Shown: piece by piece, positions 52,063-52,674 of the stretch
Numbering within the stretch: the first letter of the stretch is position 1
Layout of the letters: each line of letters begins with the position of its first letter
IMG/VR virus record: IMGVR_UViG_3300028175_000001
DNA: 64,000 nt
Reading direction: 5' to 3' (one strand)
Source of the DNA: a virus
Taxonomy: Duplodnaviria; Caudoviricetes
Translations under genes and position numbers: made by a program
The notes under the pieces: generated by a model
Databases searched by the model: none
Seen by the model: only the letters and a program-made list of their open reading frames with translations
What the model was told of the DNA's origin: nothing

Positions 52063-52674
52063 TTATTTCGAGTTATTACAGTTACATGGACAGTGATTAC
52101 AATCACATGGACAAAAATTACAGTTACATGGACAAAAATTACAGTTACAAGGACAGAAATTACAATTACAGGGACAAAAATTACAATTACAGGGACAAAA
52201 ATTACAATTACAGGGACAAAAATTACAGTTACATGGACAGTGATTACAATTACATGGACAAAAATTACAATCACATGGACAAAAATTACAATCACATGGA
52301 CAAAAATTACAATTACATGGACAAAAATCACAATCACATACGCACACAACTTTCCATTCATCGAGTTTTGTTACCAGATCGTCTATATGTGCGGCGGCTA
52401 TTAAATCTCCGACACTTACAGCACCATAAGATAATGTTGGTGCGGGACTTGGTGGAGTTTGGGTATATAACTTACTTACTATTTCTCCACGCAATTCATT
52501 CCAAATTTGTGCGGCGACAGGATCTGCCATGCTGGTCCAAGATGAAATCGCTATACTTCTTCTTGTAAACTCATCATTTAATGAAGTTCTGCAAGTAGTT
52601 ATCTCTGACTGCTGAATTAGTGTACCAGCTTGTGCAGGTAAACCAGTTAAATTGGTAGGACATGGCGAACCCAT
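52063..52674 (-). CDS. Cys-rich heptad-repeat protein; candidate radical SAM substrate or fibre-associated protein
   Basis: ~110-aa N-terminal domain followed by 12 x C[ND]C[ND][FH]CP. Much of the variation between repeat units is synonymous in this frame. Confidence 0.85.
   Translation of the reverse strand: MGSPCPTNLTGLPAQAGTLIQQSEITTCRTSLNDEFTRRSIAISSWTSMADPVAAQIWNELRGEIVSKLYTQTPPSPAPTLSYGAVSVGDLIAAAHIDDLVTKLDEWKVVCVCDCDFCPCNCNFCPCDCNFCPCDCNFCPCNCNHCPCNCNFCPCNCNFCPCNCNFCPCNCNFCPCNCNFCPCNCNFCPCDCNHCPCNCNNSK
52087..52338. repeat. 12 tandem 21-nt repeats (+ strand unit ~NGGACAAAAATTACARTTACA)
   Basis: Counted directly: 12 full units plus a partial one; no spacers. Confidence 0.95.

Follow-up and report, generated by a model that had tools for sequence, protein, structure and literature searches.

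Tandem cysteine heptads in a phage protein encoded beside three radical SAM enzymes: a candidate cross-linked, fibre-associated component of the virion

The locus

The window considered here, a 64,000-nucleotide stretch of viral DNA (Duplodnaviria; Caudoviricetes; IMG/VR record IMGVR_UViG_3300028175_000001), contains the gene of a small protein, P0001, which ends in a long run of seven-residue cysteine repeats, and directly downstream of this gene three genes for radical S-adenosylmethionine enzymes (rSAMs). In the window, every large open reading frame (ORF) is on the minus strand, and Pfam and PHROGs recognise structural genes for the tail sheath, the tube and a portal of T4 type (Portal_T4, E=4e-178). 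Since these T4-type genes include a portal that shares at most 54% identity with the portals of Synechococcus phages, the window can be assigned, on its gene content, to the genome of a divergent T4-like myovirus. Along the minus strand, the genes located 3' of the portal gene are successively a collagen-like fibre gene, an ORF of 55 residues, the Cys-heptad ORF and the three rSAM genes. Near-unchanged copies of the stretch carrying this module occur in marine and seawater metagenomes from at least 11 studies, and contigs from four metatranscriptome libraries extend over the genes of the Cys protein and the rSAMs with about 100% identity, which is compatible with the expression of these genes and no proof of it.

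The features on which the following sections depend are, all on the minus strand:

52063..52674 (-): Cys-heptad protein P0001, 203 aa, three-helix N-terminal domain followed by 12 heptads; phrog_26958, E=1.4e-22
52345..52674 (-): N-terminal domain of P0001, residues 1-110, with a PC[PST]xN motif, an NxExxRR helix and two more helices (alignment, AlphaFold2)
52075..52339 (-): 21-nt tandem array encoding C[ND]C[ND][FH]CP heptads (Tandem Repeats Finder, codon table)
50509..52059 (-): rSAM-A, 516 aa; Pfam Radical_SAM, E=1.7e-11; orthologues in 18 loci
49188..50573 (-): rSAM-B, 461 aa from a GTG start or 442 aa from the ATG at 50516; PapB/CteB-like over its full length; orthologues in 30 loci
47956..48381 (-): small protein 's', 141 aa; profile hidden Markov model (HMM) of a family of ~100 aa, E=4.3e-7
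46604..47956 (-): rSAM-C, 450 aa; Pfam Radical_SAM, E=7.2e-10; orthologues in 27 loci
52854..56750 (-): collagen-like fibre, 1298 aa; Pfam Collagen, E=1.8e-92, and tail-fibre PHROGs

The Cys-heptad protein P0001

Residues 113-196 of the translated protein consist of 12 uninterrupted heptads of the type C[ND]C[ND][FH]CP, preceded by VVCVC and followed by CNCNNSK. The protein contains 41 cysteines, 39 of which belong to the last 93 residues (111-203), and both the heptad count and this cysteine content agree with an original prediction made from the bare sequence. At the DNA level the array extends over 12.6 copies of a 21-nt period with 89% matches and zero indels, so that the "perfect" array of the original prediction is perfect in its phase and not in its nucleotides, which are not identical from copy to copy.

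The variation between the copies is informative about the reading frame. Asn (AAT/AAC), Pro (CCA/CCC/CCT) and Phe (TTT/TTC) codons vary silently across the heptads, and the non-silent changes are limited to N/D, with D at position 2 of heptads 1, 3, 4 and 12 and at position 4 of heptad 1, and to F/H, with TTT replaced by CAC in heptads 5 and 12, just as had been claimed. Under the same substitutions the residues of the array's other open frames (VIVIFVH..., WTKITIT...) change; these frames were considered as alternatives and rejected. The frame is settled because homologues at 30-60% identity also retain the Cys frame.

Structure prediction with AlphaFold2 (AF2) places helices at residues 22-38, 55-69 and 94-109, with a predicted local confidence (pLDDT) of about 80 over residues 20-110; the two N-terminal helical motifs that had been singled out beforehand fall in the second and third of these predicted helices. 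The heptad region of the unmodified protein has no structure in the model (pLDDT 33-40). Fold searches with the N-terminal domain in PDB and BFVD gave no match above the noise expected for helical models, the highest-ranking candidates, a designed helical filament (PDB, Z 8.6), Beclin/Atg6 BARA domains (Z 7.2-7.7) and the best BFVD entry (E=0.067), being rejected at that level. Scans of P0001 against Pfam and NCBIfam returned zero family matches even at E<=10, in line with the earlier remark that no named precursor class could be recognised in the heptad. The sole library match is phrog_26958, a 534-aa Campylobacter phage protein (E=1.4e-22).

An unnamed family of phage proteins

A word-indexed search with P0001 retrieved 36 relatives, and a profile search of 1.84 billion representative sequences retrieved 543 clusters at E<=1e-3, 314 of them at E<=1e-10, with matches covering both the N-terminal domain and the repeats. 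Heptad statistics were drawn from 176 family sequences, of which 162 have at least 1.5 heptads. Among these 162 members, the heptad is conserved as C(100%)-N/D(94%)-C-N/D(97%)-Y/F/H(94%)-C-T/P/A/S(94%), with the family consensus C-N-C-N-Y-C-T and the version C-[ND]-C-[ND]-[FH]-C-P in P0001. The N-terminal architecture is the same in all the aligned members, namely an NxExxRR helix, a second helix and a third helix running into x-x-C-x-C, often with PC[PST]xN at the extreme N-terminus. In the family alignment the Cys columns are invariant, and E35 and R39 nearly so. P0001, with its predicted helical N-terminal domain containing NxExxRR and its tandem heptads, has the features that define the family.

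Depending on the member, 3 to 25 heptads are present, or 1 to 16 on a strict count of perfect heptads. The closer relatives of P0001 carry from 6 to 16, and a 93%-identical variant from other samples (P0002, 189 aa) has 10 heptads instead of 12; to judge from such comparisons, the copy number is evolutionarily labile. Two loci, L021 (4721-7300) and L029 (7400-9443), have a single rSAM cassette followed by three to four Cys-heptad paralogues in tandem, each of 190-277 aa with 4 heptads. These paralogues may represent several substrates or fibre variants per enzyme set.

Among P0001 and nine relatives, scanned with Pfam and NCBIfam at E<=10, the only family match was Peptidase_S74 in one relative (P0025); metallothionein and ferredoxin families, as well as the CXXX-repeat and other NCBIfam target families, gave no match. 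The heptad spacing C-x-C-x-x-C-x also departs from the ferredoxin motif CxxCxxCxxxCP, and most relatives have Thr in place of the Pro.

The distribution of the family points to phages. A DNA pattern describing two heptads occurs in only 5 stretches among 185,579 prokaryotic genomes. Three of them, with a recognisable Cys-heptad ORF, are short contigs of metagenome-assembled genomes, two of which also carry rSAM ORFs, and the remaining two, from Campylobacter concisus, show neither a Cys-heptad ORF nor an rSAM ORF. Neither megablast of positions 50000-54000 nor tblastn of P0001 gave a match in 50,697 phage records, in searches where the low-complexity filter probably masks the repeat; the homologues of Campylobacter phages surfaced through PHROGs and the DNA pattern only. 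By these sequence criteria the family is unnamed, large and essentially restricted to phages.

Linkage of the Cys-heptad genes to rSAM genes

The three rSAM genes of the window lie within 5.5 kb of the Cys gene, the stop codon of P0001 preceding the ATG of the first of them (50509-52059) by 3 nt. That radical SAM genes follow directly downstream had been foreseen, and Pfam Radical_SAM was indeed recognised in 50509-52059, 49188-50573 and 46604-47956.

The same vicinity is found far beyond the window. All six distant homologues looked at (26-36% identity) have 1 to 8 Radical_SAM genes within 8 kb, in phage-like neighbourhoods with T4 gp13/gp14, Peptidase_S74 fibres and collagen-like genes. An IUPAC DNA pattern for two heptads, blind to neighbouring genes, was then run on IMG/VR and yielded 46 viral loci, including those of the Campylobacter phages CPt10, CP220 and CP21, in which rSAM genes were counted with an HMM iterated from rSAM-A of the window. 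The count gave rSAM genes at 38/46 loci (126 rSAM ORFs in 446 kb) and at none of 80 control loci taken around T4-like sheath genes (670 kb), a difference with a Fisher p of about 1e-24 for loci that are not phylogenetically independent. The 8 rSAM-negative loci are short or have the Cys gene at the edge of the stretch. Loci with the Cys gene in such an edge position include L023, L024, L034, L040 and L047. After clustering of the Cys proteins at 60% identity, an rSAM is visible for 34 of the 36 clusters in the surrounding DNA available. As to the reverse direction, tblastn with rSAM-A found matches in just 15 of the 50,697 phage records, every one of them a Campylobacter phage.

The original prediction had regarded P0001 as a substrate, of the kind known from RiPPs (peptides synthesised on the ribosome and modified post-translationally), of the adjacent rSAMs, and had proposed as a refuting test that homologues commonly stand without rSAM neighbours. 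The linkage held in that test, across homologues, loci and clusters and against the controls, and it supports the assignment as a substrate.

The A-B-s-C cassette

Each rSAM of the window belongs to its own set of orthologues, with scores of 210-390 bits within a set against far less to the other two, and rSAM-B is the most conserved partner of the Cys protein. The order A-B-s-C is conserved beside the Cys gene in two layouts. Type I reads fibre - Cys protein - A - B - s - C and is found in the window, at L001/L017 and L032 and, by their visible part, also at L023, L024, L026, L040 and L047. Type II reads (fibre) - c12 - A - B - s - C - c7 - Cys protein - c2 - c6 - c10, followed by more rSAMs and sugar-modifying genes.

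The orthologues are compact enzymes, typically of ~368 aa for A, ~374 aa with 14-16 Cys for B and ~296 aa with 8-9 Cys for C. The rSAMs of the window are 70-150 aa longer (A 516, B 442-461 and C 437-450 aa), with ~70 aa extra at the N-terminus in rSAM-C. Because the CxxxCxxC motif starts at residues 11-45 in the orthologous rSAMs, no room is left in them for a fused recognition domain (RRE).

The small protein 's' represents a family of ~100 aa, always located between B and C, in which D81, H101, L102 and Y105 are invariant and for which a Pfam and library search gave no family match. Its interpretation as a PqqD/RRE-like recognition protein was examined and is not supported, there being no Pfam match and only a poor, helical AF2 model (predicted template modelling score, pTM, 0.24). 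The predicted complex of rSAM-C, 's' and residues 1-140 of P0001 scored 0.00 with no control runs and gives no answer either way.

Enzyme class of the three rSAMs

The CxxxCxxC motif is present in A, B and C. The best NCBIfam match of all three is the PapB ranthipeptide maturase NF047865, with 75.4 bits for A, 135.5 for B and 62.9 for C against a cut-off of 340 bits, rSAM-B covering positions 5-318 of the 330 of the profile. The best solved structure is likewise the same for the three enzymes, namely CteB (5WGG/5WHY), matched by rSAM-B over residues 8-333 (5WGG, E=3e-13) and by the family alignment profile of rSAM-C at 2.9e-16. Nearly all the other NCBIfam matches are peptide or protein maturases, including nif11, QhpD, CXXX-repeat, CcpM and SCIFF enzymes.

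The C-terminal cysteines differ from one enzyme to another. rSAM-A has them at 318-428, with a Pfam SPASM score of 16.7 bits that lies below the 21.5 cut-off; rSAM-B has cysteines at 255-352 and aligns with CteB to residue 333; rSAM-C possesses as its C-terminal set only CxxxCxxCxxC at 335-345, and probably binds a single auxiliary cluster. The three enzymes appear to constitute new subfamilies within the peptide-modifying rSAM/SPASM-twitch group, whose nearest characterised neighbours form Cys thioethers.

Comparison with known systems

The nearest precedent for the phage module is the CrpA/CrpC pair. In Methanococcus voltae, CrpA, a Cys-rich protein made of an N-terminal domain and ten 17-residue repeats, receives ranthionine-type thioethers from the rSAM/SPASM enzyme CrpC at motifs of the C-x-x-D/Q type (PMC13692751, 2026). 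Like P0001, CrpA combines an N-terminal domain with a C-terminal array of Cys repeats of low AlphaFold confidence and is encoded next to an rSAM. The two systems differ in that CrpA is archaeal and cellular, with a 17-residue repeat and one enzyme bearing a fused RRE, whereas the phage module has a 7-residue repeat with three Cys, three compact RRE-less rSAMs accompanied by a small helper, and a fibre-gene context. Against the CrpC family TIGR04463, rSAM-B scores 38.6 bits for a cut-off of 525, and the orthologous enzymes leave no room for a fused N-terminal RRE.

PapA/PapB (freyrasin) and the SCIFF pair CteA/CteB provide the best profile and structure matches of the rSAMs, and their substrates also combine repeated Cys motifs with acidic or amide acceptors. 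These substrates are unlike P0001 in being bacterial peptides, ~45-50 aa long, that bear C-x3-D or SCIFF motifs and have no structural-protein context. With its 203 aa and its folded 110-aa domain, P0001 does not have the short leader-core form of a ranthipeptide or sactipeptide precursor.

QhpD makes Cys-to-Asp/Glu thioethers within a protein subunit, QhpC, which remains in a larger assembly. Its family (TIGR03906, cut-off 453 bits) is the second-best match of rSAM-B, at a sub-threshold 82.9 bits, and the third-best of rSAM-A. QhpC, unlike P0001, carries three bridges and no tandem repeat, and is an enzyme subunit instead of a part of the virion.

The CXXX-repeat target system (TIGR04114/TIGR04115, PF27846) resembles the module by the presence of a short tandem Cys repeat beside a dedicated rSAM, and differs from it by its period of 4 as compared with 7; rSAM-B scores 70.5 bits against TIGR04115, below the cut-off of 350. 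In one ESM-Atlas neighbour cluster (score 0.86), 19% of the members carry PF27846, which is to be taken as a lead only.

Finally, the Campylobacter phage protein of phrog_26958 (CPT_0180/gp140 of CP220, gene 3-9 of IBB_35) is a true homologue, with the same helix-heptad junction and 6-7 CDCNYCT-type heptads. It differs from P0001 by its length of 534 aa, a long extra N-terminal part and a C-terminal half with isolated, degenerate C-x-C-[ND] motifs of the form C-x-C-[ND]-x-[ND]. An rSAM gene lies 2.2 kb downstream of the Cys-heptad gene in these phages; at L054 (CP220, 8933-13912) and L055 (IBB_35) the order is Cys-heptad gene, RnlA-type RNA ligase, annotated "tail fiber attachment catalyst", phosphoribosyltransferase and rSAM gene. 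Timms et al. (2010) reported both the 21-bp repeat of CPT_0180 and the 11-12 rSAM genes of CP220/CPt10, leaving the repeat protein and the rSAMs unconnected and seeing in the latter a host-metabolic benefit (PMC2853527).

Fibre and virion context

Several family members carry signatures of phage fibres. Directly after the repeats, 64/162 members show the start motif S-D-x-x-L-K-x-x-I-x-Y of the fibre chaperones, and 6/162 possess the complete intramolecular chaperone domain of ~60 aa; in P0025 this domain is recognised as Peptidase_S74 (PF13884) with 25.6 bits, above the gathering cut-off of 22. A peculiar group of 58 members (P0017-P0036 and others) end 1-4 residues past a 13-aa start motif (...YSDxRLKxxIxYL*) and retain only a stump of the domain, for which a split gene, recoding or a trans-acting chaperone are candidate accounts. 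At L006 (10297-11202), a separate 96-aa Peptidase_S74 ORF follows the second Cys gene.

The fibre of the window is also conserved in its position. Its residues ~1100-1298 align at 31-80% identity with the module-adjacent fibre genes of 18 loci, and because the conserved part is the non-collagen C-terminal stretch of ~200 residues, this synteny does not originate from the Gly-X-Y repeats. The corresponding C-terminal domain (52854-53450, minus strand) contains a WSDLAERY motif and gives no Pfam match; we presume that it resembles the autoproteolytic chaperone domains of fibres.

For one homologue, particles have been analysed. The product of IBB_35 gene 3-9 is among the 38 proteins identified by tandem mass spectrometry (MS/MS) in purified particles, with a coverage of 2.6% (PMC3322345 Table S2). 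This gene (1605 nt, 60,318 Da, beside RnlA) maps exactly to the GenBank coding sequence AEF56812 (P0037), whose translation displays seven CDCNYCT-type heptads after a P0001-like helix. Scans of the window module with Pfam and NCBIfam revealed no peptidase or transporter. Taken together, the Peptidase_S74 domains of homologues, the fibre synteny and the weak Campylobacter MS/MS data lend indirect support to the virion attachment that the original prediction had raised as a possibility, and P0001 is probably a fibre-associated virion protein.

Proposed chemistry and alternative explanations

The explanation which we favour, with somewhat better than even confidence, is that P0001 is a fibre-associated virion protein whose heptads would be cross-linked by the rSAMs of the cassette through Cys-to-Asn/Asp thioethers. 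What has been observed comprises the repeat, the protein family that shares it, the association of the genes and the class to which the enzymes belong; the parts of the explanation built upon them are inferred from these, strongly for the status as a substrate, moderately for the location in the virion, and weakly to moderately for the thioether chemistry and the pattern of rings. That P0001 is a substrate of the conserved A-B-s-C cassette is highly probable. Once this is granted, thioether cross-links to Asn/Asp become a slightly favoured reading, suggested by analogy with the characterised enzymes.

According to the proposed mechanism, the three rSAMs and the ~100-aa helper would act on the Cys-heptad protein encoded beside them, the enzymes working iteratively along the array and joining the sulfur of Cys to side-chain carbons of conserved Asn/Asp residues by ranthionine-type thioether bridges. 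Two C-x-x-[ND] units would be used per heptad, one linking Cys1 to Asn4 and the other linking Cys6 to position 2 (Asn/Asp) of the following heptad; the third enzyme might take care of the remaining Cys, one enzyme per Cys position being a guess. The product would be a covalently laddered, rigid rod, resistant to proteases and redox changes, and the protein would stay in the virion with the adjacent collagen-like fibre instead of being released as a peptide. This arrangement takes its form from the heptad itself: for two of its three Cys, the residue at +3 is one of the two conserved Asn/Asp. The conserved CPTN motif at the N-terminus agrees with such a spacing, and so do the degenerate C-x-C-[ND]-x-[ND] motifs in the Campylobacter protein. 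Of the Cys residues outside the arrays, 51% have Asn/Asp at +3 and 41% have it at +1, for a background of 14%; these figures are compatible with a C-x-x-[ND] rule, are equally explained by a plain C[ND]C[ND] motif, and are not decisive.

Several points speak against this explanation. None of the three rSAMs comes near the cut-off of any curated NCBIfam family, that of PapB included, and similarity among rSAM/SPASM enzymes is no predictor of chemistry. The heptad lacks the C-x3-D unit of PapA, no Cys having Asp/Asn at +4. No RRE is apparent in 's' or in the enzymes, so that no substrate-recognition element is assigned, and a Cys-x-Cys array could as such be a metal binder. The chemistry proposed for the family is deduced from genes. 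As to the virion, P0001 itself ends in ...CNCNNSK and is devoid of the chaperone motif, and the particle evidence is weak, consisting of one study with 2.6% coverage of a distant 534-aa homologue.

Unlikely, though the best of the alternatives, is that the heptads are substrates of the rSAMs for another chemistry, be it sactionines (S to C-alpha), cyclophanes joining the position 5 Tyr/Phe/His to a C-beta, formylglycine, epimerisation or a mixture of these. The linkage evidence applies here unchanged, about 94% of the heptads have an aromatic residue or His at position 5, and the presence of three different conserved enzymes points to more than a single reaction. Weaker NCBIfam matches moreover include the cyclophane formers YhhB and XyeB, the dynobactin enzyme DynA, the anaerobic sulfatase maturase (anSME) and sactisynthases, with the epimerase YydG and anSME among the PDB matches. 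However, the PapB/CteB thioether class is the top match for all three enzymes, and three invariant Cys together with two Asn/Asp reproduce the donor/acceptor pair of the ranthipeptides, QhpC and CrpA.

A shade less probable is an unmodified array binding metal or Fe-S, metallothionein-like or akin to the His-x-His sites of the T4 fibre tip, the rSAMs then targeting the fibre or a small molecule, or using the Cys protein as an Fe-S or electron donor. The density and the Cys-x-Cys spacing of the 39 Cys in 93 residues would suit such a role; AF2 leaves the apo repeat without a fold, synteny with the cassette extends to the fibre gene, and many type II loci contain sugar-modifying genes and further rSAMs that need other substrates. 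Yet the linkage tracks the Cys protein and not the fibre, since fibre-less loci (L003-L008 and the Campylobacter phages) still pair Cys proteins with rSAMs, strictly conserved Asn/Asp and aromatic positions are atypical of metallothioneins, the scans at E<=10 produced zero metallothionein or ferredoxin matches, and tandem paralogues (L021, L029), like heptad numbers of 3-25, are less expected of a cofactor carrier than of substrates or fibre variants.

The least probable reading, a true RiPP precursor with a 110-aa leader from which the Cys-rich core would be cut off and freed at lysis as a diffusible antimicrobial or signal, accords with a leader-like domain and a repetitive core directly upstream of RiPP-type maturases and with the 3-4 tandem precursor-like paralogues of some loci, but meets with the lack of any leader peptidase, transporter or immunity gene in the window module or the conserved cassette, the location of the gene within the structural block, flanked by the portal/fibre genes on one side and the remainder of the island on the other, the fibre-type Peptidase_S74 domains of homologues, the homologue in the IBB_35 virion proteome, and an N-terminal domain conserved and predicted to be folded in every member.

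Adjoining genes

Two further ORFs stand between the genes described above:

48353..49174 (-): ORF of 273 aa between rSAM-B and 's'; no significant family match, absent from the cassettes of other loci
52674..52841 (-): ORF of 55 aa between the fibre and Cys genes; no family match, called as a gene in two metagenome records

The 55-aa ORF has a TTG start, fills the gap between the TGA of the fibre gene and the ATG of the Cys gene, and overlaps the start of the latter as TAATG. An ATGA overlap at the fibre stop opens a frame of 12 codons only.

Directly downstream of the rSAM module, at 38512-43752 (minus strand), Pfam reveals a run of lipid or polyketide genes comprising two fatty-acid desaturases (Pfam-supported), a 2-oxoglutarate (2OG)-Fe(II) oxygenase, an AcpS-type phosphopantetheinyl transferase, a type III polyketide synthase or KAS III-like enzyme and a short-chain dehydrogenase. 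Between this run and the module, 1.8 kb from rSAM-C, a 260-aa ORF (43974-44756, minus strand) contains an Aspartyl/Asparaginyl beta-hydroxylase domain (PF05118, E=1.2e-7, above the cut-off). With two conserved Asn/Asp per heptad, this beta-hydroxylase could be a candidate for an extra tailoring enzyme. At L001, a 2OG-FeII_Oxy_3 gene comes after the rSAM cassette.

Significance

Cross-linking of a Cys-repeat protein by an rSAM is already known in kind. In the literature searched, no description was found of the heptad family, the three-enzyme RRE-less cassette, the phage-only distribution or the fibre context. So far, rSAM/SPASM thioether chemistry has concerned short bacterial peptides, one enzyme subunit (QhpC) and, since 2026, one archaeal protein (CrpA). 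The most specific version of the proposal, that phages staple each heptad of a virion protein by means of three rSAMs into two C-x-x-Asn/Asp rings plus a third link, with fused rings, has a chance that we put slightly short of even. A homologue exists in cultured Campylobacter phages, whose virions make the idea directly testable.

If true, the proposal would introduce a new class of enzymatically cross-linked structural proteins and the first RiPP-type radical chemistry in the assembly of virus particles. For enzymology, the gain would be three compact RRE-less maturases that process an extremely regular substrate in an iterative manner. The proposal would also account for the abundance of rSAMs in Campylobacter phages and in many marine and jumbo phages, and would give a role to genes that have puzzled phage genomics since 2010, when 11-12 copies were found in CP220/CPt10. 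For the phages themselves, it would mean a new viral route to harden or tune a structural part.

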